Position numbers and translations under genes: made by a program
The notes under the pieces: model-generated
The model's input: the letters and a program-made list of their open reading frames with translations, nothing else
Database searches by the model: none
What the model was told of the DNA's origin: nothing
NCBI GenBank assembly: GCA_049282355.1
Contig: JBAPTW010000152.1
Coordinates: 1,224 to 65,223 of the forward strand
Reading direction: 5' to 3'
Source: Gammaproteobacteria bacterium
Lineage (GTDB): Bacteria; Pseudomonadota; Gammaproteobacteria; HK1
Length of the DNA stretch: 64,000 nucleotides
Shown here: positions 5,136 to 51,498 of the stretch, in pieces
Position numbering within the stretch: position 1 is the stretch's first letter
How the letters are laid out: each line of letters begins with the position of its first letter

Positions 5136-8100
5136 TTATGAGAGTCCTCGGCTGGCACTCCCATTGTCGCTACCAGCGTGCTCAATCGAACTGTATCCGG
5201 ATGTGTCTGCAATGGCCGCCGGAAGAGGTTGCAGCACGAGTGCCGTCAAGGGCGGCAGCGGCAATGACAGGGAGAAGCGGTAGCCGTGCCAAGCTTTCTC
5301 CTCGGCTGTCGCTCCCTGTGCCGGCAACCCGCGCCCGCGACCGCCATAGGCTACGGCATCGCTATTGAAAAGCTCCCGATAAAAAGTAGGGAAGGGAACA
5401 CCTATCCGATAGCTGGCGTAGGACACTGCAGAGAAATTCGCCACGAACAGCACCGTGTCACGGGGATCCCGGGCTTTCCTCAGGAAAGCAATGACATTTT
5501 GTTCGGGACTATCCAGATCAATGCCCTCGAAGCCCTCACGCCCGAAATCAACCTCGTGAAGAGCCGGCGCCGACCGGTACAAGCCGTTCAGATCAGCGAC
5601 GAAGCGCGACAGGCTGCGGTGCAACTCAAAATCCAGCAGCTGCCAGTCGACACTGGCGGCGTGGTTCCACTCCCGCCTTTGGCCAATCTCCCCTCCCATA
5701 AACAGCAACTTCTTTCCAGGATGAACATACATGAAAGCGTAAAGGAGCCGAAGATTGGCAAATTGCTGCCACTCGTCCCCCGGCATTTTTTCCAGCAGCG
5801 ATCGTTTTAGATGCACGACTTCATCGTGGGAAAGGGACAGCACGAAATTTTCTTCGAACGCATAATGAAAGCCGAAGGTGAGCCTGCGGTAGTGCTGCCG
5901 GCGGTGCTCCGGGCGCTCCTGCATGTAGGTCAACACATCGTGCATCCAGCCCATGTTCCACTTGAACCCAAAACCAAGACCGCCGTCCTCTACCGGCCTC
6001 GACACCCGAGGCCAAGCCGTTGACTCCTCGGCCATCAGCATCACTCCTGGAAACCGCGCATGCACAATGGAGTTGGTATGCTTTAGGAACTCGATCGCCT
6101 CCAGATTCTCGTTACCCCCGAACCTATTGGGGATCCACTCCCCCGGCAGTCTCGAATAATCGAGATACAACATGGAAGCCACGGCATCGACCCGCAAGCC
6201 ATCGAAATGATAGGTCTCGAGCCAAAAAAAGGCATTGGCGATGAGGAAGTTCTCGACCTCGTGACGACCATAATTAAAGATCAGCGTCCCCCAATCTCGG
6301 TGCTCACCCTTGCGCGGATCGGCATGCTCGTAGAGGCTGGTCCCATCGAACCGACCGAGCGCATGGGCGTCCTTAGGGAAATGCGCCGGCACCCAATCCA
6401 GAATGACGCCAATGCCTTCTTGGTGGCAGCGATCAATGAACGCCATGAGGTCTTCTGGCCTGCCAAAGCGCGACGTCGGCGCATAGAAGCTCGAGATTTG
6501 GTATCCCCACGAGGGCTCATACGGATGCTCGGCAATAGGCAAGAGCTCGATATGGGTAAATCCCAGGCGTTTGACATAAGGCACCAGGCGCTCCGCCAGG
6601 GCGGTGTAGAAGAGGCGCTGGCCATCGGCAGTACGCCTCCAGGAACCCACATGCACCTCATAGATAGCGACCGGGCTCTGCCACATGTCGTTGGCGGCGC
6701 GTTTCTCCATCCAGTCCTGATCTTGCCATCGGTACCGACCCTGGACCTCGCAAACGATGCTGGCCGTTTGCGGCGCAACTTCGCAATAGAACGCATAAGG
6801 GTCGGCCTTCAGACACAGTCCGCCGTGGGCAGTACGAATCTCGTATTTATAGAGCTCACCTTCATCAAGGCCCGGCACAAACAGCTCCCAGACACCAGCA
6901 TCCTCGTGTAACTTCATTTGGTGTTGGCTCCCAGTCCAGCTGTTGAAGCTACCGACGACACTCACACCCTCTGCATTGGGCGCCCATACGGCAAAGCTGA
7001 CACCGGTTTCGCCTTCTCTGACGTGTGGATGGGCGCCCAATTTGCGAAACACATGATAGTGGTTGCCTTCATGAAAAAGCTGACGGTCATAAAGCGTGAA
7101 TAGCCACGACCGGTAGGCATAGGGATCGCGATAGGTGTAGCTGCTCCCGCCCGGCTCCAGCACCTGCACTTGATACTTCGGCTCGGCGCCGAGCGGTGCG
7201 ATGGTCCCTGCAAACAGTCCGCGAGCATCCACCTTGGCCAGCTGGTGGCGCAGCCACGGATAGCCGTCCATGACCACATAGGCCTGCTCAGCTCGTGGCA
7301 GGAAGGCACGAACGATCTGCACGTTGTCATCCGTCCCTGCATGGGGACCGAGGATGGCGAACGGATCGCGATGGCGTCCGTGAACGAGCCGTTGAATCTC
7401 GTGCTCTGGAAGGCGCTCCGGGTGCCGCTCGGCGCGGACGATGAGCAACATAGGAGCAGGCCGCTCATGCCCTTCGCGCCAGCAGTCGGCGTGTAGAGCT
7501 GCCGTCAATGGATCCACGAGCACGGCATCGACGTGGTAGTGGTGCTGCCAGAAGGTGACGCTCGACAGCACAGCACTCTTGATTTCACCGCGAGCAAAAT
7601 CGAACCTGACCCGCGGTCCTGTACGCTGTGTATCGTCTTCGTACAGCCGCGTTCCATCAAACCAATTAAGCGCAGTGCCGTCCACCGGCATAGACGAGCC
7701 CATCCCCGGCACCACGACACCGAGACCGCTTTGATGGCAGAAGTCGATCAGTGCCATCAGATCGGCCGGCGTGCCGCAGGAACGGCTGGGGGTATAACCG
7801 AACCCGTCATGGCTCGACGGATTTGCCGAGAGCGGGATGAATACATGGGTGAAACCCTTCCCTTTCACCTCGCTGATCAAGCGTGGCGTCGCCAGCGATC
7901 GGTAGTGCGCCCCTTCTGCCCCCTCACCGGCAATGCTTGCCCACGCTTTCAAGTCGATCTCGAAAAGGTAGATGGCGCTCTCAGCTTTCTGGACAACATC
8001 GCGTTCGAAGCGAGAAGCGAGCCAGGAATGATCTTTCCAATGGTGGACTTGCGCCAGGCTGCACACGATGGCAGCGGCGTTTGAGGAGGCCTCTATCGAG

Positions 8101-8795
8101 GTAGCGTAAGGGTCGGTTTTTAGGAAAACGTTTCCCGCCGGGGTCTTGATCTCGTACTTGTACAGCGCGCCATCGGCTACCCCGGGAATAAACAGCTCCC
8201 ATATTCCCGAGAGCCCCAGGAGCCGCATTTGATGTACTCGTCCGTCCCATTGGTTGAACGTTCCAACGACGCTTACTCGCGCTGCATTCGGGGCCCACAG
8301 CGAAAACCGCACGCCGTCCACGCCCCCCGCTCGTCGCGGGTGGGCGCCAAAAAGGTGGAACGCCTGGAGGTGCTCACCCGCCGCGAGCTTCGCCAGATCC
8401 TCTTCGGTGAAGGCCGATATCTTGATGGCATAGGGATCGTGTAACGTGTGCTCCGCACCCTGCTCATCGGTGACGATCAGGCAGTAACCGCTGCCGTTGA
8501 TGAGTCCTGGTAAGCTGCCCTCAAAGAGCCCTGAGGGGTGGATTTTCACCAACTGATGTTTGCGCGTCCCCTTTCCTTCTGTCCCCTGTGCCGCAAACAC
8601 CTCCTTGGCCTGGGGGAGGAAGACGCGAATGACCGTCCTGTCATCTTGCTCCGAATAGTGAGGACCCAGTACCGCGTGCGGTGCCTGATGCCGCGACTCG
8701 ATGATCCGTTGAACCTCTTCTTCAGCCATGCTCATCCTTACGCTGTGCTCCTGTCGTCTAAAGCGATCCTTCATGCGCGCCAGCCGCCTGCTCAT
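5136..8795 (-). CDS. glgB: Tandem-duplicated 1,4-alpha-glucan branching enzyme: degenerate truncated GlgB-like N-half fused to an intact GlgB
   Basis: 1219 aa. The C-half (about nt 5136-7417) has all GH13 regions: [32 protein letters not shown]. The N-half (about nt 7418-8795) aligns residue-by-residue to the GlgB N-domain, CBM48 and first half of the barrel. However DWVPAH is replaced by VVPGMG, GLRVDAV is altered to HVDAVLVD, and regions III/IV are absent. An alternative start is the ATG at 8735 (MSMAEEE). Confidence 0.9.
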   Translation of the reverse strand: MSRRLARMKDRFRRQEHSVRMSMAEEEVQRIIESRHQAPHAVLGPHYSEQDDRTVIRVFLPQAKEVFAAQGTEGKGTRKHQLVKIHPSGLFEGSLPGLINGSGYCLIVTDEQGAEHTLHDPYAIKISAFTEEDLAKLAAGEHLQAFHLFGAHPRRAGGVDGVRFSLWAPNAARVSVVGTFNQWDGRVHQMRLLGLSGIWELFIPGVADGALYKYEIKTPAGNVFLKTDPYATSIEASSNAAAIVCSLAQVHHWKDHSWLASRFERDVVQKAESAIYLFEIDLKAWASIAGEGAEGAHYRSLATPRLISEVKGKGFTHVFIPLSANPSSHDGFGYTPSRSCGTPADLMALIDFCHQSGLGVVVPGMGSSMPVDGTALNWFDGTRLYEDDTQRTGPRVRFDFARGEIKSAVLSSVTFWQHHYHVDAVLVDPLTAALHADCWREGHERPAPMLLIVRAERHPERLPEHEIQRLVHGRHRDPFAILGPHAGTDDNVQIVRAFLPRAEQAYVVMDGYPWLRHQLAKVDARGLFAGTIAPLGAEPKYQVQVLEPGGSSYTYRDPYAYRSWLFTLYDRQLFHEGNHYHVFRKLGAHPHVREGETGVSFAVWAPNAEGVSVVGSFNSWTGSQHQMKLHEDAGVWELFVPGLDEGELYKYEIRTAHGGLCLKADPYAFYCEVAPQTASIVCEVQGRYRWQDQDWMEKRAANDMWQSPVAIYEVHVGSWRRTADGQRLFYTALAERLVPYVKRLGFTHIELLPIAEHPYEPSWGYQISSFYAPTSRFGRPEDLMAFIDRCHQEGIGVILDWVPAHFPKDAHALGRFDGTSLYEHADPRKGEHRDWGTLIFNYGRHEVENFLIANAFFWLETYHFDGLRVDAVASMLYLDYSRLPGEWIPNRFGGNENLEAIEFLKHTNSIVHARFPGVMLMAEESTAWPRVSRPVEDGGLGFGFKWNMGWMHDVLTYMQERPEHRRQHYRRLTFGFHYAFEENFVLSLSHDEVVHLKRSLLEKMPGDEWQQFANLRLLYAFMYVHPGKKLLFMGGEIGQRREWNHAASVDWQLLDFELHRSLSRFVADLNGLYRSAPALHEVDFGREGFEGIDLDSPEQNVIAFLRKARDPRDTVLFVANFSAVSYASYRIGVPFPTFYRELFNSDAVAYGGRGRGLPAQGATAEEKAWHGYRFSLSLPLPPLTALVLQPLPAAIADTSGYSSIEHAGSDNGSASRGLS

Positions 8796-32620: not shown

Positions 32621-35071
32621 TCAGGCTTTTGGCTTGCGGCCCTTCGTTGTCGGTGAAGCTGCCACCTCTGCATCATCAGATTTCGTCTGCGCCACTCCGC
32701 TTGTCGGGGGCTTATCAGCGCCTTCTTGCGTCTCGTGGTCTTCCTTCAACTGCGACCGCAATTCAGCCAGCTCAGAGCGCAGCACTTCGACCTCTGCCTC
32801 TGCCGGGGTGTCTGCTAGGTGCTTTTGTTCGGCAGGGATCGCTTCCGGCTCCCGTTGCAGGACGATGCCGGCCAGTGGTGGCAATGTAATCGACAGCGAA
32901 TAGGGCCGGTCCATCCACGGCATCTCCTCGGCGATGAGCGAAACTCCACCGTTTCCAACATTGCTGCCGCCATAGAACTCCGAGTCGGAATTGAAGATTT
33001 CTCGATAGGTGCCGGGACTTGGTATCCCGATACGGTAGCCATAGCGGGGTACCGGCGTGAAGTTCACCACCACGACCAAGAATTCATTATCGCTTTTGCG
33101 CAGATAGCTGAGAATCGACTGTTGACCGTCATGACAATCGATCCAATCAAATCCTTGCCACTCGAATTCATAGCAATAGAGCGCCACTGAGCGGTGATAG
33201 AGCGCATTCAGATCTTTGACCAGCCGCTGTACTCCACTGTGGAACGGGTATTGGACCACGTACCAGTCGAGGACCCTGGCGCTGTCCCACTCCGTCCCTT
33301 GACCAAACTCTGTGCCCATGAACAGTAGCTTCTTTCCGGGATGGGTGAACATGTACGTGTAGAGCAGGCGTAAGTTGGCAAAGCGGCGCCACTCATCCCC
33401 GGGCATTTTATTGAGCATAGACGCCTTTCCGTGCACCACCTCATCGTGAGAAAAGGGCAGCAGGAAATTCTCCGTAAAAGCGTACAGCATGCTAAACGTC
33501 AGCAGGTCGTGGTGGTACTGACGGTACACGGGATCGTGAGACATGTACCGCAGGGTGTCGTTCATCCAGCCCATATTCCACTTCAGGCTGAACCCAAGTC
33601 CCCCCACATAGGTGGGACGGGTCACTTGCGGCCAAGAGGTGGACTCCTCGGCCATCACCAATACCCCGGGATGCTGCCCATGAATCACGGCATTGAGCTC
33701 GCGAAGAAACTCCATCGCCTCAAGATTTTCCCGGCCGCCGTATTTATTGGGAATCCACTCTTCCCGCGAATAATCGAGATACAGCATCGACGCTACGGCA
33801 TCCACTCGCAGCCCATCGAGATGAAATTCCTCCACCCAAAACACGGCACTGGAAAGCAGAAACCCGCACACCTCGTGGCGTCCGTAGTTATAAATCAAGG
33901 TGGACCAGTCCAAGTGCTCGCCCTGGCGCGGATCCGCATGCTCATAAACGGGCTCACCGTCGAACCGGGCGAGACCATAGGCATCTTTGGGAAAATGTGC
34001 CGGTACCCAATCGAGGAAAATCCCGATGTCATGCTGATGACAGTAATTAACGAAATAGCGGAAATCATCCGGCTTACCAAAGCGGCTTGTGGGTGCGAAA
34101 TAGCCGGTGCTCTGATATCCCCAGGAAGCATCAAAGGGATGCTCCGTGATGGGCAGCAACTCAATATGGCTGAATCCCAGGTCCTTGACATAGGGTACGA
34201 TCTGTTCGGCAAGCTCCCGGTAGGTCAAGAATTCGCCTTCCGGGCCTCTTTGCCACGATCCCAAGTGCACCTCATAGATTGACATGGGCGCGTGGAGCCA
34301 ATCGCGGGATGCGCGTTTTTCCAGCCACGCCTCATCGGTCCAGGCAAACGAGGTTTCATCTACCGCGATTGAGGCTGTGCTCGGACGCATCTCAAACCGC
34401 TGACCGTAGGGATCGGTCTTGAGAAACACCATACCTGAATTGCGGTTACGAATTTCGAACTTATAAATAAGCCCCGCCTCAAGTTCAGGTATAAAGAGTT
34501 CCCAAACACCACTGCCTCCGCGCACTCTCAAGGGATGTGCACGACCATCCCAGTGGTTAAAATCACCCACCACGCTGACCCGCTCCGCATTGGGAGCCCA
34601 TACGGCAAACCCGATGCCGGCTATGCCGTCCACCACTCGCGGGTGTGCCCCAAGGAATCGATAGGCATGCCAGTGGCGTCCCTCGTTGAAAAGGTGCAGA
34701 TCAAAATCGCTCACCTGCGGCAAGAAAGTGTAAGGATCGTGGACGATGTGCTCATGATGTCCCGCGTCCCGCCAAATGAAGCGATAGTGAGCAGGAAGCC
34801 CATCGGGATCACCGCGCCACTCGAAAATGTCGGTATTGGGAATGCGTTCCATCGGCAACATCCCCTCGGCGATGGTCACATCGATGCAGTTTGGGATGTT
34901 GGCCCTGACCACGATGCCATCGCCTTCTTGATGGCGACCGAGCACCTCGAACGGATCGTGGTGCTTCGCTTCTGCGATTCGTCGCAAGTCTTCTGTGAGG
35001 TTGGGAATGTTCATTCGTTGGATCTCTATTGTGTTTTCGCGCTGCTCCCTCTGCAGATGCCTCGAGAGCAC
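32621..35071 (-). CDS. glgB: 1,4-alpha-glucan branching enzyme with a 77-aa charged C-terminal extension
   Basis: GH13 regions [25 protein letters not shown] and SHDEVVH, plus a CBM48 segment. The tail [10 protein letters not shown]...[21 protein letters not shown]...KGRKPKA maps to nt 32621-32854. The likely true start is the ATG at 35014 ([10 protein letters not shown]). Confidence 0.95.
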
Positions 35072-35698: not shown

Positions 35699-35981
35699 TA
35701 AGCAGGCAGGCGTTAGATTCGACGTCGAGGTGTCGAGGTCAGGGACCGCGGGCATGTTGGTTTGGCGCACTGCCATAGGCTAGGCCCACACCGGCTAATC
35801 TAGTTAGGTGCAAAAAGGACTGAAGCGGCGCGGCAGCGGAAAAAACATGAGGTCAGGCAGCAAACCTTCTTGAGCTGCCGATGACACCAACAACAAATCC
35901 TGTACCCTGTACCCCACCGGCAGCATGCGCCCGTGGGCGGCGAATCCCCACGATGAAATCAGAAAACCTGGAGTATGGTGC

Positions 35982-37253
35982 ATGAAGATATACAACCTCT
36001 TCCCGCCGCTTGCCGGCAAGTTTGCCAATTGGACCCCCCACCTCGATCGGGCGGCCAAGATGGGGTTCGACTGGATCTTCGTGAATCCCATCCACAAGCC
36101 TGGCGGATCAGGAAGCCTTTATTCCGTGGCAGATTATTTTGAGCTCAATGATCGCTTCGTGGATCCGAAATCGAGCAAATCGCCCGAAGCGCAGATAAAA
36201 GAAGTCATCCGCAAGGCGGAGCGCCGGGGATTGCAACTGATAGTGGATCTGGTCATTAATCATTGCGCATCGGATTCACCTCTCGTTTCCGCGCACCCTG
36301 AATGGTTTCTGCATAACGAAGACAACAGCATCGCCCATCCCTTCTGTATCGAAAATGGCAAAAAAACGGTCTGGGGGGATCTTGCACGTTTCGATCACCG
36401 AAATAACAGCGATCCGAACGGCCTTTATCGATATTGCTTCAAAATCGTGGATTATCTGATCCGGTTAGGCTTCGAGGGATTTCGCTGCGATGCCGCCTAC
36501 CAGATTCCAGGTAAGCTATGGCGACGCCTCATTGGGGAAACAAAAAACCAACACCCCGACGTGCTTTTTCTTGCCGAGACCCTCGGGTGCACCGCGGACC
36601 AAACCAAGAAAACCGCTGATGCCGGTTTTGACTATGTCTTTAACAGCTCCAAATGGTGGGACTTCTCCAAGCCCTGGCTGTTGGAGCAGTATGATCTCAT
36701 CCGCGAGCGAGCGCCCTCCATCAGCTTTCCTGAGAGTCACGATACGGCGCGGCTTATGGAAGAGATGCACGGCAATGTAGAGGCGCTGAAGCAACGTTAC
36801 TTATTTGCTGCGGTATTCTCGAGCGGAGTCATGATACCCATCGGCTTCGAGTTCGGCTTCCGTAAGCGCCTACATGTGGTGAAAACTCGACCAGAGGACT
36901 GGGAAGAAACGGACGTCGATTTGACCGACTTTATCGCCCGTGTCAATACCATGAAGTCGCGCTTCCGAATATTTCAAGAGGAGTGCCCCACACAGGTATT
37001 GCGCTACGATAATCCCGCCGTTTTGTTGATGTGGAAAGCTTCAGTAAAAACGTCCGAGGAAGCCCTGATCATTCTCAACAAGGATCCATGGAACCGACAG
37101 CATTTCCATGCGGAAAGCCTCGGGGGATTCATCCAAGGGGGCGCAGCACTGATGGATGTCTCTCCCGATGATCCCATGGACTACGTTCCCGTGCCTTTTT
37201 CCTATGAGCTACGCCCAGGCGAAGGCCGGGTAATGGTCACAACGCGAGAATAG
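35982..37253 (+). CDS. GH13 alpha-amylase-family enzyme, GlgE-like catalytic domain only
   Basis: MKIYNLFPPLAGKFANW...MGFDWIFVNPIHKPG resembles the start of the GlgE catalytic domain. Motifs present: DLVINH, GFRCDAAYQIP, FLAETLG, FPESHDT. GGAG lies about 9 nt upstream of the ATG at 35982. Confidence 0.7.
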   Translation: MKIYNLFPPLAGKFANWTPHLDRAAKMGFDWIFVNPIHKPGGSGSLYSVADYFELNDRFVDPKSSKSPEAQIKEVIRKAERRGLQLIVDLVINHCASDSPLVSAHPEWFLHNEDNSIAHPFCIENGKKTVWGDLARFDHRNNSDPNGLYRYCFKIVDYLIRLGFEGFRCDAAYQIPGKLWRRLIGETKNQHPDVLFLAETLGCTADQTKKTADAGFDYVFNSSKWWDFSKPWLLEQYDLIRERAPSISFPESHDTARLMEEMHGNVEALKQRYLFAAVFSSGVMIPIGFEFGFRKRLHVVKTRPEDWEETDVDLTDFIARVNTMKSRFRIFQEECPTQVLRYDNPAVLLMWKASVKTSEEALIILNKDPWNRQHFHAESLGGFIQGGAALMDVSPDDPMDYVPVPFSYELRPGEGRVMVTTRE

Positions 37254-44309: not shown

Positions 44310-47300
44310 CTACGAAAGGCCCTGCTGAGGACGGCTCTGAACCAGGTAGACTGTGTTGTTCGCAATAACCCCCTCAACGTCCTGGGGCGAGCCAAAGCGG
44401 GCTTCCAGAAATGCGGCGATGTCAATAAGGCGAGCGCCGAGCTGCTCGGCGTTTGCCGCATCGACTGACCACGGTACCAAAGTGTAATCGATTCGCTCCG
44501 TCGTCGGTATCTGAGGGCCCGGACGCAAAGCGAAGCTGAAACTGGCGAGTCGCGTAAGCCGCGCCTGCCCCTTCTTGCGATCGCAAAGCAAACGATAAGG
44601 ACTCCCCGACTGCACCGCCGACGCCAGTGTCTCGCCGAGCCCAACCGCCAACTCCACAGCAGCTTGCTCGCGACTGCCGGTAATGGGATCGGCGGTGTGC
44701 ATGATGAAGGACAGCTCCGGGTGCACCATCTCTTGAACCAACACCGCCATACGCACCTGTTCGTGGGCAATGCCGCAGGCCATGCGGCTTAACGCCGCGC
44801 GCCACGTCCATAATGATGCCCAGACCGACCGCACCGCTTCGGCAAGCCCTTCCCGGCTAACGCCGATCACTGAGTCGTAAAGCCCCGCACCGGCAAAATC
44901 CTTTAGATCCTCGCCGTTGGCGCTAGAGCGCACCGCCAGCCGCCGATCTTGGGCAAAAAGCTCTCCGAGCTCAGAGAACAGATGATCCGGTATCGGTACC
45001 GTTCTCAGCAGTGCCCGTAATTCCCCGAGACGTTGTTCTTGCTCTTCGGACGAAGCCCTTTCCAAGGCCTGCTGAAGCCGCTGATATCGCGCCTCCAATG
45101 CAGGATTCAAGGACAAGCAACCCTCCATCACGCCAAAGGGCAGTACCCGCCCGCTGGGCGCCCGAAACAAGCCGCTTTCTTCGGCCAGGGCCAGTAACCG
45201 GCCCGCGGCGGCGGCCTTTGCGCCACAAGTCGAGGTTTCGGCGACCGGCAAAGGAAGCGACTGAAGCTCGGTGGCGAGAGTGGTCGCCAGTAGCGCAGGC
45301 GGAGCGACGGGCAACCGCTCGGCCGGGTGGGAATTATCCTCGGCTCGCTCTAACAAGAGTTGCTCGGCCGCGACGCTAAGCTTCACCCAACTGTTGACCA
45401 GCGTCTGGAATTGCTCCAGCTGATCGCGCGCATCGGCAGTTACAAAGGGCACGCGGGCCTGACGTGCGCGCACACCCAAATGGGAAAGATGGGGAATGGG
45501 ATGGGCAAGCAAAATACCCCTCACATGGCGCGGGATTTCCTCGTCTCCGTCCGCACGCCCCAGCAGTACGATCAGTGGCGCGGACGGTGAAGCCAAGGCT
45601 GCCAGCTCATCCGTGCGCACCAGCCGCCCGTAAGCCTCCCCGGCAACCAGCGTCTCCCACGGCGGTAGACCAAGGGCCGTTCGTAGCGCCGTCCGCGCCA
45701 TGTCCACGAGCTTGGAGAGCTGAAATACAATGTTGCCGCGAATATCCCCTTCGCAAAATACCTCGATGGCGTGTTGGGGAACCCCCAGCGCCGTGCCAAG
45801 TAAGCTCACCCGATCGGCAAACAACCCAACCACTTTGTCGCTGTAGCCCTCTCCTAAGCGCTGCGCCCGTTCCAAGGTCGCCAATAGCCGCCGAAGCTGA
45901 AAATCACTGCTCGGATCGAAGGCCTCTGACCACCGCGCCAGTTCCGACTCGATGACGGCACACTCCTGCGCTTCTATCTGGCTCAATCGAACATTGGCGA
46001 CGAGATAACGCAGAGCACTGAGCACATCTTGCCAATAATCGGTTATCGCGAGCGGCTCCAGCTCATTGGCGAGCTCACTGGTTAACACAAAGGCGTAATC
46101 TTCAAGACCAATGTCGGCGAGATGCAGGCGCTGCCTTGCGACACCCGTCACCGCATCCCGGTACTTAACCAGAGCTTGGCGCAGCTCAGTGAGCATCCCT
46201 AAGAGTACCCCACAATCCTCCAGGTTTCGTCCCGCAGCCGCTTTCCGATCGAGAAACGCACGGGCACGCTCGGCATCAGCCGTGCTGAGCGACGGTTGCA
46301 GCTCGAGCACCCGCTGTTCCATGCCGGTGGCGTTGAAAAACTCGCTGAGCTCTTGGTGAAAGATCTCGAACTGATTGACGAAATCAGGCGAGTAATCGCT
46401 GCCGGGCAGGGTGATCCTTGCCAGAATTTCCTCCGAAGTCTTGAGGTCCTCGGGGCCTGCGCAGCGATGCAGCTTGTTTTGCAAGCGGTGCTTGATCTCG
46501 TGCTTTAGCTCCTTCGGGATATCATTGCGGTGGGCGATGTCGCGGATACGAGTCAGCGGTTCGCGCCGGAAAAATTGATCGCTATGAGAGGGCAGCCAAG
46601 GCAGAATTTTACGCACAATCCAGGCATTATCCTGGGACTCCAGAGCGTCCAGCGCCTTTTCGATGGCGAGCGCCGCGCGGGCATGGTGATTGGGACGAAA
46701 GTGTCGCCCATCCTCCGCACAGGAAACCTCCGCGGTTCCCAGGAAGCGCAGATACGCCGCGATGGTGGCAAGCTCGCCTAAGGAAAGCGGCGAGTCTTCT
46801 CGTGTCAGGCGCTCGCCCACCCAAACCAGCCGCTCCCGCCAACTGGCGTGTCTCCGGTGAGCCGCGACTAACTCGGCGATGAACGGATCGCTGATGGCCT
46901 CGGGGTCGAGCGTGGTGCGGCTCGCAACCGCTTCCTCGGTACCGCCAGCCGGTTGCTCGGGCGGCGAAACCGGCTTTTCTCCAGTCACTGGTCGACGTTT
47001 TTCGGGGCGCCGTTTCTCACCGGCCCGCCCGAGCAGCGGGCGCAGCCGCTGCTCCGCTTGCAACAACAAATCGCGAGGCTCCGGCCACTGCTCAAGAATG
47101 AGAGCCCCGCTGAAGCGCCGCCTGCGCAAACGTTTGATGAATGCGCGGATCCCGCCATCGTTGTCGCCCGCCGGACCGCTGAAAACAGTCAGGTGACTAT
47201 CGGCATCGCCATAGTTCTCATGCACGTGGGCGTGAATGATCGGCACTTCGGGAGCCAGTTCATCGATATAGCGGATATAGTCGTTGCGTGTTGGCGCACA

Positions 47301-47840
47301 AAGGTTCGCATGGCCTAGATCCAGGCAAAATCCCACGTGCGCCGCACCACCATTGAGATGGCGCAGTGCGGCAAACGTTCGGTTGATGTCGTCAGGAGTG
47401 GTGTGCGGTGTGTTCTCGATACTGATGCTCACACCAAGCGCGGCAGTGCGGCGAATGACCGGTTGCAATGCGTGCACATAGCCTTGTGCTCCCTCGTCCA
47501 TGTACAGATGCAGATTAACGATATCAGCGCCGATAGAACGGGCGAATTCGAGGCTTTCCAGCAGTAGATTATTCCCGTCTGGCCAGAGCGGATTGGCTTG
47601 CCAGGGGGCGTGGACGCTGTAACGGATGTCCCGCGCTTCACCGAGTTGCCGGATCTCGTCGCGCATCGGGTCATCCATATCGCCGCTATCCCAGCCCGAA
47701 ACACTGCCGTCCTCATAGACTTTCTTATCCACGAACCACTCAAATGCATCGAACCCATGAGCGAGCGCGAATTCGAAGGGTTCCAGTGGGGTCGTGGCAG
47801 AAAAGGCTGTTTGGTTACCAATGCGAATGCGCCGAGTCAT
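44310..47840 (-). CDS. Phosphoglucan water dikinase (PWD/GWD3)-like protein with N-terminal xylose-isomerase-like TIM barrel
   Basis: N-terminus (about nt 47025-47840): HAPW, VNLHLY, ISIENT, CLDLGHAN, HAHVHEN, ILEQW. Centre: RIRDIAHRNDIPKELKHEIKHRLQNKLHRCAGPEDL. Phospho-His motif PHLSHLGVRARQARVPFVT (His codon 45480-45482). C-terminal nucleotide-binding domain: CGAKAAAAGRL...SSANGEDLKDFAGAGLYDS...VLVQEMV. Confidence 0.8.
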   Translation of the reverse strand: MTRRIRIGNQTAFSATTPLEPFEFALAHGFDAFEWFVDKKVYEDGSVSGWDSGDMDDPMRDEIRQLGEARDIRYSVHAPWQANPLWPDGNNLLLESLEFARSIGADIVNLHLYMDEGAQGYVHALQPVIRRTAALGVSISIENTPHTTPDDINRTFAALRHLNGGAAHVGFCLDLGHANLCAPTRNDYIRYIDELAPEVPIIHAHVHENYGDADSHLTVFSGPAGDNDGGIRAFIKRLRRRRFSGALILEQWPEPRDLLLQAEQRLRPLLGRAGEKRRPEKRRPVTGEKPVSPPEQPAGGTEEAVASRTTLDPEAISDPFIAELVAAHRRHASWRERLVWVGERLTREDSPLSLGELATIAAYLRFLGTAEVSCAEDGRHFRPNHHARAALAIEKALDALESQDNAWIVRKILPWLPSHSDQFFRREPLTRIRDIAHRNDIPKELKHEIKHRLQNKLHRCAGPEDLKTSEEILARITLPGSDYSPDFVNQFEIFHQELSEFFNATGMEQRVLELQPSLSTADAERARAFLDRKAAAGRNLEDCGVLLGMLTELRQALVKYRDAVTGVARQRLHLADIGLEDYAFVLTSELANELEPLAITDYWQDVLSALRYLVANVRLSQIEAQECAVIESELARWSEAFDPSSDFQLRRLLATLERAQRLGEGYSDKVVGLFADRVSLLGTALGVPQHAIEVFCEGDIRGNIVFQLSKLVDMARTALRTALGLPPWETLVAGEAYGRLVRTDELAALASPSAPLIVLLGRADGDEEIPRHVRGILLAHPIPHLSHLGVRARQARVPFVTADARDQLEQFQTLVNSWVKLSVAAEQLLLERAEDNSHPAERLPVAPPALLATTLATELQSLPLPVAETSTCGAKAAAAGRLLALAEESGLFRAPSGRVLPFGVMEGCLSLNPALEARYQRLQQALERASSEEQEQRLGELRALLRTVPIPDHLFSELGELFAQDRRLAVRSSANGEDLKDFAGAGLYDSVIGVSREGLAEAVRSVWASLWTWRAALSRMACGIAHEQVRMAVLVQEMVHPELSFIMHTADPITGSREQAAVELAVGLGETLASAVQSGSPYRLLCDRKKGQARLTRLASFSFALRPGPQIPTTERIDYTLVPWSVDAANAEQLGARLIDIAAFLEARFGSPQDVEGVIANNTVYLVQSRPQQGLS

Positions 47841-47947
47841 AGGAGCTATCCAAGCTATGCGGGAGTGACAAATGTTGCCGGCGATTGTACCTCCAACCCA
47901 CCGCGGCCACGACCATCCGCCGGCAGCTTCCCGTTACCCAAGGGTCC

Positions 47948-50900
47948 TTATAGCCCCACCTGGGGACGTGTTTGCACCACGTACAACTCCCCCTGCTGCA
48001 CGGCGCCTTCAATATCTTGCGCTGACCCCAGGGTTTGTTCTATTTCGCTTCCAAGGCGGGCGATCTTCGCCAGCAGATCCTGGCGAAACCCACGATCGCA
48101 AACCAGCGGCTCGTCGCAGTAGTCTACCAAGCGCTGGCATGGCGCCTGCGCCAAAAAGCTATCGTAGAGCCCGGCGCCGGCAAACCCCTCGAGATCTTCG
48201 CCGTTCGAGTCAGAGCGAAAGATGACTCCCTGGCCATCCAGAGCAATGCTCTTGCTCGGGTATGATACGGGGGATAGCGCCAAGCTGTCTTTGCGACAGA
48301 TAAAACCCAACGCCCGTCCAGGATAATTTCCCACCAGCGTCTCGCCCATGCCGACGACCACCTCGGCGAACAGCTCGTCGGTGGCGCCTGTTAACGGATT
48401 TACCGTATGGATCACGAAGGCATACTGCGCCTGCACGACTTGTTGAATCAATACCGCAAGCATCAAATCCTCGTGGGCAATCTTGAGCGTCGTGCGCGAA
48501 TAATAAGCGCGCTCGTTCCACTTTGATGCCCACACTCGACACAATGCTCGCCACACAGAGGTCCATTCGTTGTCCGGCAAACCTGCTTGCCTCCATACTT
48601 CGCCGAGAGCATCCCGAAACGCCGCCGGCGCCTCGAGCGCGAGCAGAGCCTCCCTTAACTGCGCTAACACGCGCTGCGGATCGCGCTCCAACTCGCCCAG
48701 CAGCTGCTCATAGCGCTTCGCCAGCGGCGAGTTCTGCCGACACTGCAGGATTTCCTCAAAGACCCCAAAGGGCACAGCGATAGAAGTGGGAAATCGGATC
48801 CAGCTCGATAGCCGGCCCTGCAAATCCACCAGGTGGCTAGATTTGCCCCCGACCAATTCGTCGCGGAATGACGCCGACCCGATCGCCCAGGTAGAGAATG
48901 GCCGCCGTCGCACCTCGACTGCGGGCCGTCCGCGCGGCGCCACATCACCGGGCGCGGCCTCTTGCGCTTCCTCAAAGGTAACGTCTCCCCCGGCGTTCAC
49001 GGCAAAACGCAAGCGATGATGCTCTAGCGCCTTTAGCTGCTCATAGGTGACCTCATCGAAGCAAGTCGCGAACAGTACATGGGCGTTTCGTGCTCGCACC
49101 GCCACGTGGGACACTAAGTCAGGGGTATCACGGGTGATCACGGAGGTAACCCCGTCCGGGATTTCTTCGTCGCCCGCCACGCGATCGCTGACTAACACGG
49201 TCGGCTCCGGGTAACGCTGCCCCTGAGCGTTCAGCAGGCTATTGAGGACACATACCCGACCCGCCGCCAAGGAGGCGGGACTGATGATCTGCCATCCTCC
49301 CGTGCCGCAGCGGGCTCGCAGCACGGGATCCAACCGCCGCAGTAGCGCCGACAACACGAACGGCAGATTGCCACGAATAATCTCCTCACTGAAAACCGCA
49401 ATGGTCCATTGAGCGACACCGAGCGCCTCTCCCAAAAACTCGGCCTGTGGCTGCAGACGACGATAAAGTGCATCGCTCCAATCACCGGTAACACGGGCAG
49501 CCCGGTCGGTGACACTCTTGACCTGCAGAGCCCAATCAACATCCCGCTCCCGCGCCCTGGCAAGGCCACCGAGCTGGCGAGCCACGAAAGCAAACTCTGT
49601 CTCGCCGAACGACAGGCCCATATTGTGCGCTGTCGTCGCCGCGAGCGAGGTCAGGGCCTGCACATCGACATCGCGTAAGGCCTGACGTTCAATGGCAGCG
49701 CGTAGCGCCTGCTCAAGTGCCAGATCGAGATAAAGCATGTCCCGCAAGACCCGCGGCTCATCGGTGGCATCGATACGGCGGGCAAGCAACTGACGGGTCT
49801 CGGTTAGGAGCTCCGCCCACCCCGGCAAAGCGCTGCTATCGGTAACACCCGCCCGCAATCGATTCAGCAGTTCTCTCGTGCGCTCGTCCAACCTCGCTTC
49901 CGCAGCGGCGATGGCAGATTCCATGTCGGTCCCCGAGTGCACCGAGCGCAGTAACCGCAGGAAACCCTGAAAATCACCTACCAAGCCTTGCTTCTTCTCG
50001 GCGTAGAACTGAGGGTCAGTTTTTATGGGACGTTCGAAGCTTGCCAGACGCTCCCGGCTCACACCACCGCGCTCCAGGGTGCGGTAAAAAGCATCCAGCG
50101 CACCGTCAGCCTGAAGAAAGGCAAGGTAGGCCTCGCAAATAACCACGTCGTCGGGGGTGGTATTGTTGTGCAGCTTCTGATGCCACTCTTCCAGAAAGGT
50201 ACCGTGCACTTCCTTGATATGGTGGCTATGCATGATGTTGAGGATCTCATCCCTGACCCGCTGTCCTTCCCCACCAGGACCAAGGGTGGTCAACATCAGC
50301 CGCACAGCGGGCCGACTCGTTGGATAATCTTTGTAGATACTCGCCAGGCGCAAGGTCAAGCGATCCTGGGCGTGCGCGAGCTCACGGGGTTGGGTGTTGT
50401 ACCGGCGCTGCCAGTCCAGCTGACGAATGGCCGAATAGCGCAGCCACGTATAGATCAGCGCCAGTGCCTCGTCATTCTCCTCCGCCCCCTCCAGCACCTC
50501 GTAGCACAGATTGAAACGGTGCATGAGGGTCCAAGACTGTCGCCCCGTCTCGGCGCCGATGATCCGCTGTGCGAGCTGTTCCAAATTCCCCGCCGCAAGG
50601 ATCTTCTTGCCGGCTGAGACCACGCGCAACCGCAGCTCCATGTCACCCCTATCCGCCTTAATCCAGCGCTCCTGCGAAGAGGCATAAAGCACGAACTGTA
50701 TGGCGGGGGGCACATTCGCCTTGGCGAAGCTCATTTCCAGCCAACGCAGCCTATCTTGATCGCGAAACGGCGTCTGCAGCGCCTTATTCTGAAAATCTCG
50801 ACTTCCTGGAGGCCATATTGTCTTCGGCGGCATCTGCCAGCCATCGTCAGAGCCCCCGACAATACCCCAGTGCAGCCACACGGGCGCATCGACATCGGTC

Positions 50901-51430
50901 ACGAAAACCATCTCCGTTCCGGTGTCGCTCTTCAGCGTTGCCGCCGCCAAGCTCTCGCCTGTGTCAAGGTGGAATGTTTGCCGACCCCAATCCGCGCCCC
51001 TGATCCGTCCCTCGATCGCTTCCACGGGGCTTGGGGCTTGCTTTTCGGCAGGAAGGGTGAGGCAAAAATCATCCTTACCATCCTTTATCCAACGCCGTTC
51101 TTCCGGCAGGTATAACACGAACGGTAAAGCGTTCCAGCTCAGCGGCCGGTCGAGCCGCACCGCCAGTGTCGCCCGACCCGGTGCACTCGGCTCTAGCGGG
51201 CTTTGCACCGCATGATGGTCAACAGCGACGGTCTGCGGCGGCCAAACCGAAGGAGGTGGCAGATGCCAGTTGCGATCCCGGTGACGCCGCAAGCCCCAAT
51301 GCAAGCAGCACGGCTTATCCGTTTCTATGTCAAAAATTAGGGTTAAATGCCGATCCGAGCACTGCTTGGTCACTCGAATAGCGATCTCACCGGCCCGGTA
51401 AGTTTTCTCAACCCATTCTTCATTATTCAT
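47948..51430 (-). CDS. Alpha-glucan water dikinase (GWD1)-like protein with two N-terminal CBM45-like modules
   Basis: Two repeats carry LHWG..W..PP..WPP and FVLY...ERWIK (about nt 50624-51391). Other motifs: EEWHQKLHNNTTPDDVVICEAY, the phospho-His motif LVSHVAVRARNAHVLFATCFD (His codon 49106-49108), and the C-terminal VGGKSSHL...DSNGEDLEGFAGAGLYDS...VLIQQVV. ATG at 51430; the longer TTG start at 51463 is possible. Confidence 0.85.
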   Translation of the reverse strand: MNNEEWVEKTYRAGEIAIRVTKQCSDRHLTLIFDIETDKPCCLHWGLRRHRDRNWHLPPPSVWPPQTVAVDHHAVQSPLEPSAPGRATLAVRLDRPLSWNALPFVLYLPEERRWIKDGKDDFCLTLPAEKQAPSPVEAIEGRIRGADWGRQTFHLDTGESLAAATLKSDTGTEMVFVTDVDAPVWLHWGIVGGSDDGWQMPPKTIWPPGSRDFQNKALQTPFRDQDRLRWLEMSFAKANVPPAIQFVLYASSQERWIKADRGDMELRLRVVSAGKKILAAGNLEQLAQRIIGAETGRQSWTLMHRFNLCYEVLEGAEENDEALALIYTWLRYSAIRQLDWQRRYNTQPRELAHAQDRLTLRLASIYKDYPTSRPAVRLMLTTLGPGGEGQRVRDEILNIMHSHHIKEVHGTFLEEWHQKLHNNTTPDDVVICEAYLAFLQADGALDAFYRTLERGGVSRERLASFERPIKTDPQFYAEKKQGLVGDFQGFLRLLRSVHSGTDMESAIAAAEARLDERTRELLNRLRAGVTDSSALPGWAELLTETRQLLARRIDATDEPRVLRDMLYLDLALEQALRAAIERQALRDVDVQALTSLAATTAHNMGLSFGETEFAFVARQLGGLARARERDVDWALQVKSVTDRAARVTGDWSDALYRRLQPQAEFLGEALGVAQWTIAVFSEEIIRGNLPFVLSALLRRLDPVLRARCGTGGWQIISPASLAAGRVCVLNSLLNAQGQRYPEPTVLVSDRVAGDEEIPDGVTSVITRDTPDLVSHVAVRARNAHVLFATCFDEVTYEQLKALEHHRLRFAVNAGGDVTFEEAQEAAPGDVAPRGRPAVEVRRRPFSTWAIGSASFRDELVGGKSSHLVDLQGRLSSWIRFPTSIAVPFGVFEEILQCRQNSPLAKRYEQLLGELERDPQRVLAQLREALLALEAPAAFRDALGEVWRQAGLPDNEWTSVWRALCRVWASKWNERAYYSRTTLKIAHEDLMLAVLIQQVVQAQYAFVIHTVNPLTGATDELFAEVVVGMGETLVGNYPGRALGFICRKDSLALSPVSYPSKSIALDGQGVIFRSDSNGEDLEGFAGAGLYDSFLAQAPCQRLVDYCDEPLVCDRGFRQDLLAKIARLGSEIEQTLGSAQDIEGAVQQGELYVVQTRPQVGL

Positions 51431-51498
51431 TTTGATACCGCCTGGGAACCTCAGGCAAAGCAACTAGGTATACCTCCAATGGCTTTAGGGATACCCCC

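Follow-up and report, generated by a model that had tools for sequence, protein, structure and literature searches.

A long-form branching enzyme with a degenerate, truncated GlgB copy in front of a complete GlgB in an uncultured gammaproteobacterium

Long branching enzymes in described systems

Glycogen branching enzymes (GlgB) of unusual length have been noticed before in bacteria that cycle storage glucan. Williams et al. (bioRxiv 10.1101/2023.10.11.561824) reported that GlgBs of more than 1000 amino acids are enriched in Defluviicoccus, Competibacter and Contendobacter and show repeated CBM48 and amylase Pfam patterns, and Wang et al. 2019 mention duplicated GlgB domains in passing (PMC6339891). 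Long forms from Competibacter and Contendobacter also carry the MaGe-type database label "GlgB (modular protein)". Here we describe a gene of this kind in a 64,000-nucleotide stretch of contig JBAPTW010000152.1 (assembly GCA_049282355.1; hereafter the window), which comes from a gammaproteobacterial metagenome-assembled genome (MAG) with a large α-glucan gene set. The gene, a long-form glgB at 5136..8795 on the minus strand, encodes a degenerate, truncated GlgB copy (the N-half) followed by a complete one (the C-half). Long GlgBs were thus on record for Competibacter and Defluviicoccus by 2023, and the window gene adds a new host lineage to a type that is known but still uncharacterised.

The window protein has the same architecture as the long GlgBs of the glycogen-accumulating organisms (GAOs) Ca. 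Competibacter, Ca. Contendobacter and Defluviicoccus and belongs to the same orthologous family. Compared with the long forms of Competibacteraceae and Rhodospirillales, it is 35-43% identical in the N-half and 57-63% identical in the C-half, with N-halves grouping with N-halves and C-halves with C-halves. Unlike the Competibacteraceae proteins, however, its N-half is more degenerate, having lost the equivalents of D335, W336 and R403, and unlike the GAO members it is found in a different uncultured gammaproteobacterium, whose Lon has its nearest named homologues (about 70-72%) in Sulfurivermis, Thiohalomonas and Sulfuricella. The preprint covers length and Pfam patterns only, and not the dead half barrel, the single origin or the selection described below. 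Our literature search returned no description of a half-barrel pseudo-enzyme, of its single origin and selection, of an obligate pairing with a conventional GlgB or of a link to dikinases.

Set beside conventional GH13_9 enzymes, such as those of Escherichia coli (1M7X/4LPC), Mycobacterium tuberculosis (3K1D) and Cyanothece BE1 (5GQU), the C-half is a full member and the N-half keeps the fold of the first ~430 residues, but the conventional enzymes do not have the extra ~440-residue pseudo-enzyme module in front. The plant proteins PTST1-3 and FLO6 (PMC6243121) offer a possible analogy, in that delivery of a glucan-acting enzyme to the polymer is the proposed task of a non-catalytic CBM48 unit. 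Those are separate coiled-coil proteins that act in trans, whereas the window unit is fused in cis and stems from the very enzyme it adjoins, and there is no homology between them beyond CBM48. Other GlgB fusions include a chlamydial GlgA-GlgB with an inactive branching enzyme (BE) domain and the MalQ-GlgB of Neisseria (PMC11046441). The chlamydial protein resembles the long GlgB as a large multi-module protein in which a BE domain persists in an inactive state, but the partner modules of both fusions differ from those of the window protein. Assignment to the actinobacterial type NF011293 (1224 positions) was rejected, as the protein scores 980 bits and the curated cut-off is 2376; the C-half alone matches positions 499-1220. 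The first ~498 positions of NF011293 are unmatched by the window protein, and this model appears to represent a second, unrelated kind of long GlgB that is probably actinobacterial.

A dead half barrel joined to a complete enzyme

The window gene is a single frame of 1219 codons plus a stop, with no internal stop codons, as had been proposed in a first-pass annotation made from the sequence alone. The length given there, 1219 amino acids, is correct for the longest open reading frame (ORF) but probably not for the product. The latter is probably 1197-1199 amino acids long, because Shine-Dalgarno-like sequences (AGGAG / AAGGA) precede each of the two probable true starts at 8727..8735 (-), M21 (8733-8735) and M23 (8727-8729), the database gene call P0002 begins at M23, and the same-genus orthologue G032 also has a Met at the position of M21.

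When residues 1-460 were compared with residues 461-1219 by BLASTP, one alignment was obtained, in which residues 23-440 run collinearly with 462-882 at 38% identity and 55% positives (E = 6e-95). This agrees with the collinearity of residues ~22-460 and ~462-900 claimed earlier, and every motif pair quoted in support of that claim was found in both halves. Identity between the halves is highest in CBM48 (55%), with 36% in both N1 and the first half of the barrel. Pfam places GlgB_N and CBM48 in each half, together with two Alpha-amylase stretches, and Alpha-amylase_C only at residues 1093-1190. The halves are joined by a short, poorly conserved linker, ERHPER (residues 456-461; 7413..7430, (-)), which shows no conservation and, over few codons, ratios of nonsynonymous to synonymous substitution (dN/dS) of 0.45 and 1.3, higher than in all other segments.

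Three units can be recognised in the N-half, all on the minus strand. The N1 domain (GlgB_N; residues 25-122, 8430..8723) is detected by Pfam and modelled as a β-sandwich by AlphaFold2 (AF2). It is followed by a CBM48 (Pfam CBM_48; residues ~145-235, 8091..8363) with Trp183 at 8247-8249, and then by a degenerate half TIM barrel (residues ~270-455, 7431..7988), in which the AF2 secondary structure runs from β1-α1 to β4-α4 and ends in a strand, LLIV, at 450-453. Modelled alone, the N-half folds confidently (pLDDT 89.7, pTM 0.91) and superposes on the first ~430 residues of solved GlgBs, with query template modelling (TM) scores of 0.81 (3K1D) and 0.77 (9U77). The full-length protein, modelled with family alignments, gives pLDDT 84.6 and pTM 0.81, and a Foldseek search with this model found no PDB entry covering more than half of the long GlgB.

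Measured against an active GH13 enzyme, which has a complete (βα)8 barrel with the catalytic Asp/Glu/Asp, the N-half has no more than four βα units and one strand in the models. Region I reads GVVVPGMGSSMP, with PGMGSS (P363...S368; 7692-7709, (-)) in place of DWVPAH, so that D800 and H805 of the C-half correspond to P363 and S368. Region II is VDAVLVDPLTA, where L426 replaces R868 and Asp428 is retained (L426-V-D428; 7512-7520, (-)). The SWGYQ loop is deleted and the Tyr of GYQ is thereby gone, and nothing in the window N-half matches regions III and IV. A candidate region III remnant, "RAE" at the end of the N-half, was dropped, as the hydrophobic strand alone is conserved across the family and not the Glu. 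Across the 97 N-halves of the family described below, the general acid/base Glu and the His-Asp of region IV are missing from 100%. With regions III and IV absent, and with Asp and His gone from region I, Arg from region II and Tyr from GYQ, the N-half cannot carry out the GH13 reaction. These results uphold the earlier picture of a non-catalytic copy with an altered region II that stops before regions III and IV, as well as its derivation from GlgB by duplication with subsequent degeneration and truncation, given the 38% collinear identity and the cut after region II. They correct it in one detail: the loss at region I is real, but the string quoted for it ("DWVPAH becomes VVPGMG") was offset by two residues.

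In the C-half, also on the minus strand, the order N1 - CBM48 - A - C required for a GH13_9 GlgB is found by Pfam. N1 (residues 462-560, 7116..7412; Pfam and self-alignment) and CBM48 (residues 582-672, 6780..7052, with Trp620; Pfam CBM_48 at 585-668) are followed by the catalytic (βα)8 domain (5526..6698), with Y765, D800, H805, R868, the nucleophile D870, the acid/base E923, H990 and D991. The protein then continues into domain C (Alpha-amylase_C by Pfam; residues 1093-1190, 5226..5519) and a disordered C-terminal tail (residues 1191-1219, 5139..5225, pLDDT < 50). All four GH13 regions are intact, and the catalytic residues are 98-100% conserved across C-halves. The long GlgB passes the NCBIfam GlgB equivalogs NF003811 (1237 bits, cut-off 741) and TIGR01515 (1185, cut-off 464), and target-normalised Foldseek TM scores of the C-half are 0.91 to 3K1D and 0.90 to 9U77. 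Sequence and model together identify the C-half as a complete GH13_9 1,4-α-glucan branching enzyme, predicted to be active.

As the source genome is a fragmented MAG of 511 contigs, joined genes or a mis-assembled repeat might be suspected to have created the fusion. DNA similarity between the halves is limited to 149 bp at 65% identity, and no common exact word exceeds 13 nt, which excludes a repeat-collapse or duplication artefact. Moreover, the same continuous frame is present in two congeneric genomes and on a syntenic stromatolite contig, an identical Competibacter protein has been assembled on 23 contigs, and the architecture is common to about 97 clusters from independent assemblies. 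The probability of an assembly or annotation artefact is therefore next to negligible, and the fusion claimed by the first-pass annotation is genuine.

Origin and divergence of the long-form family

A search with the N-half returned about 100 clusters (90% identity) of proteins of 1105-1268 amino acids, 97 of which were split into halves. All 97 have the two-half layout with an N-half that ends before region III, and in every one the C-half keeps all catalytic residues. A maximum-likelihood tree (FastTree) was built from the 97 N-halves, the matching parts of the C-halves and a small, non-random set of conventional GlgBs. The N-halves form one clade with support of 1.0. Their subtree mirrors that of the C-halves, and patristic distances among N-halves correlate with those among C-halves at r = 0.96. 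A Competibacteraceae clade appears in both subtrees, and the six-member clade of the window is sister to a clade containing Methylococcales and Rhodospirillales. Because the N-halves are monophyletic, the subtrees are mirrored and the distances are so strongly correlated, the tree points to a single ancient fusion followed by co-divergence of the halves. The window protein belongs to this family, being longer than 1000 amino acids with a truncated GlgB-like unit before a full GlgB, an N-half in the single clade and a C-half that co-diverges with it. The duplication thus dates to the one origin of the whole family and not to the window genome. The fusion may have arisen either from a duplication within one gene or from two tandem gene copies that a deletion then fused.

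Because an N-half resembles GlgBs in general about as closely as it resembles other N-halves, a scan of contigs with it returned mostly conventional GlgBs, along with an orthologue at 81% (L007). An N-half-only profile found no free-standing or differently fused N-half in 1.84 billion representative proteins; the ~9 representatives that scored above conventional GlgBs were all long forms or collinear fragments. A 609-aa frame in one genome, G188, was considered as a free-standing N-half and rejected, since it belongs to a long-form gene whose second CBM48 is interrupted by a frameshift. This gene (L092:12800-16397, contig C18) is present as overlapping ORFs of 602 and 607 amino acids and may be a pseudogene or a sequencing error. 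It clusters with glgA, GH57, an hDGE-like GH13, two conventional glgB genes and dikinases. Some family members, P0100-P0102 (1105-1112 amino acids), have an N-half that begins at about residue 50-60 of the usual one; as most of N1 is missing there, at least one lineage can dispense with N1 of the dead half.

Loss of the vestigial active site has not proceeded equally across the family. Competibacteraceae N-halves retain the equivalents of Asp335, Trp336, Arg403 and Asp405 and have Leu at His340. Those of the window clade have Pro, Gly, Ser and Leu/Val/Ile at Asp335, Trp336, His340 and Arg403, and keep the equivalent of Asp405 alone. This pattern indicates that the decay is lineage-specific.

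One explanation for such losses is that the N-half is a functionless relic in slow decay, and the tree does show N-halves evolving 1.8x faster than C-halves. The constraint on them, however, is relaxed yet clearly purifying. Against the same-genus orthologues G032 and G031, dN/dS is 0.245 and 0.27 for the N-half vs 0.098 and 0.14 for the homologous region of the C-half, and 0.23 and 0.29 for the dead half barrel vs 0.03 and 0.10 for its catalytic counterpart. A value of about 0.25 is far below the 1 expected of a relic. Across deeply diverged members, 21 columns of the N-half are invariant, mostly in N1 and CBM48 with a few structural residues of the barrel, and the barrel motifs WFDGT, FW..YH.D and the terminal hydrophobic strand are conserved. 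The module boundaries are the same in every member, the sole disrupted case (G188) is broken in the C-half, and the N-half is confidently folded in the AF2 model, all of which makes a mere relic very improbable.

Predicted role and genomic setting

How long a chain branching enzymes transfer is tuned by their N-terminal domains and surface sites (PMC6339891, PMC6243121, PMC10254366). In the E. coli enzyme, 12 glucan sites have been mapped, with Trp159 of CBM48 in site IV (PMC10254366). The N-half CBM_48 scores above the Pfam threshold and has the equivalent of this residue in W183, which is present in 100% of N-halves, while Y275, F294, Y300 and H340 of the E. coli active site and donor groove have been lost from them. 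We consider that the long GlgB is a long-form GH13_9 enzyme with a non-catalytic N-half for glucan binding and positioning, a reading to which we give a probability of roughly 0.6. The first ~430 codons of a glgB were duplicated once, anciently, placing N1, CBM48 and a half barrel before a complete GlgB, and this front unit has since lost its catalytic apparatus, yet purifying selection has preserved it in folded form. The N-half may now act as an arm that binds and positions α-glucan, mainly through the intact CBM48 site, which would make the enzyme bivalent for glucan. Such an arm might hold the catalytic C-half to the particle as it grows, set which chains are cut and re-attached and at what spacing, or both. 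The long GlgB could in this way be a specialised second branching isoform beside the conventional GlgB of bacteria that store glucan heavily. Among the possible roles of the N-half, glucan binding is favoured because the CBM48 Trp is invariant and the N-half is under purifying selection.

Several points weigh against this proposal. The site IV Trp is the one known binding-site residue that can be mapped onto the N-half; the E. coli sites VII, X and XII, which lie in the covered region, are not conserved in N-halves, with site VII poorly conserved even in C-halves and conventional GlgBs. The AF2 models may lean toward the canonical GlgB fold through the homologous alignment. The literature holds no biochemical, binding, activity, oligomeric-state or structural work on any long-form member. 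Finally, an open half barrel would expose a face that is normally buried, which could instead indicate a protein-protein interface.

This last point leads to the main alternative, that the N-half serves chiefly for oligomerisation or as a scaffold, in which case the open (βα)4β half barrel would pair with a second protomer, the C-half or another glucan enzyme, and glucan binding would be secondary. Half TIM barrels are able to pair, the structural motifs of the half barrel are conserved and under purifying selection despite the lost catalytic residues, and the full-length pTM of 0.81 suggests a fixed arrangement of the halves. The most conserved part of the N-half, however, is CBM48 and not the barrel, and barrel-mediated dimers are without precedent among solved bacterial GlgBs. 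We regard a predominantly scaffolding role as unlikely.

The long form is rare, and both its coexistence with a conventional GlgB and its place in or near α-glucan clusters of several lineages count in favour of the proposed role. In the host's family in the Genome Taxonomy Database (GTDB; 53 genomes, 19 genera), it is found in the window's genus only. A survey of double-GlgB proteins, suggested in the first-pass annotation, was carried out on an even sample of 301 gammaproteobacterial genomes and recovered the long form in the window genome (G000), in family f2 (G053, G264) and, frameshifted, in G188, or about 1% of the sampled genera. At least one conventional GlgB accompanies the long form in all six of the long-form genomes examined. 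The conventional paralogue of the window, also recognised earlier, lies at 32621..35071 (-) within an α-glucan supercluster and encodes 816 amino acids; its Alpha-amylase_C extends to residue 740, and the ~75 residues of C-terminal tail beyond it match no Pfam family. A GlgB match is absent in 35 of the 53 genomes of the host family. The rich α-glucan gene set, including the long GlgB, is thus a speciality of the window's genus within its family, in keeping with horizontal acquisition.

The long glgB of the window sits between moaA/DUF2459 and lon, an arrangement kept in the 73%-identical orthologue from a stromatolite metagenome, and a large α-glucan cluster with two GWD-type dikinases lies 24 kb away. 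Elsewhere in the family, the gene directly follows a dikinase pair and is followed by an hDGE-like GH13 (P0018), lies inside a cluster of GlgA, GH57, an hDGE-like GH13, a conventional GlgB and a GWD-like dikinase (P0008), or adjoins an hDGE-like GH13 (P0085), TreY/TreZ-like genes (P0098, Rhodospirillales) or glgC (P0091, Methylococcales). In Competibacter (P0041), as in P0032, no glucan gene cluster surrounds it and it is found by itself. These neighbours allow for a regulatory or pseudo-substrate N-half, which would modulate the active site of the C-half or dock GlgA, the hDGE-like GH13 or the GWD-type dikinases. The repeated adjacency of long glgB to hDGE-like GH13 and dikinase genes is in keeping with such a role, as are the vestiges of regions I and II kept in the Competibacteraceae clade. 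Competibacteraceae, however, have the long form without any dikinase, and we consider a regulatory role quite unlikely.

The hDGE_amylase-like GH13 proteins are ~440-500 amino acids long and fall below every NCBIfam equivalog cut-off. In the window, one is encoded at 35925-37253 (+), beside the conventional glgB, and in three other lineages (L101:11780-13084, L102:6057-7559 and L100:12986-14254) the gene is next to or one gene from the long GlgB. On another contig of G188 (L093:1465-5040, contig C35), a 1191-aa fusion carries an hDGE_amylase-like GH13 directly before a complete GlgB, which hints at a joint function of the hDGE-like protein and the branching enzyme.

Two adjacent GWD/PWD-type dikinase genes are found at 44310-51463 (-) of the window, one of them with an N-terminal xylose-isomerase-like TIM barrel, and G000 carries four such genes in all (the window pair and those on contigs C362 and C364). 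Of the 300 genomes of the class sample, G000 and G188 alone have the GWD phosphohistidine domain, and both carry the long form. This amounts to 2/4 long-form genomes vs 0/296 others, with a Fisher probability of about 1.3e-4 that rests on two lineages only. The domain is also present in two congeners of the window genome and absent in the f2 genomes. An extension of the proposed role, which we consider unlikely, is that the long GlgB is an isoform dedicated to a denser, starch-like, phosphorylatable glucan, with the two CBM48 arms as a ruler for branch clustering and the GWD/PWD-type dikinases mobilising the product. If this were true, the dead half enzyme would be a structural determinant of polymer architecture and not a mere anchor.

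There is continuing debate on what sets chain length and branch spacing in branching enzymes, with N-terminal domains and surface sites the suspected rulers. The long-form family may be viewed as a natural experiment on this question, in which a full enzyme and a second, dead copy of the ruler domains have been under selection since a single origin. The (βα)4β dead half barrel is also a rare case of a stably kept partial TIM barrel. The long form is found in extreme glycogen cyclers, the GAOs of wastewater, and, as found here, in carriers of plant-type glucan dikinases. A contrast between the full-length protein, the C-half and a W183A variant would bear on the ecophysiology of GAOs and on the engineering of slowly digestible, highly branched glucans.

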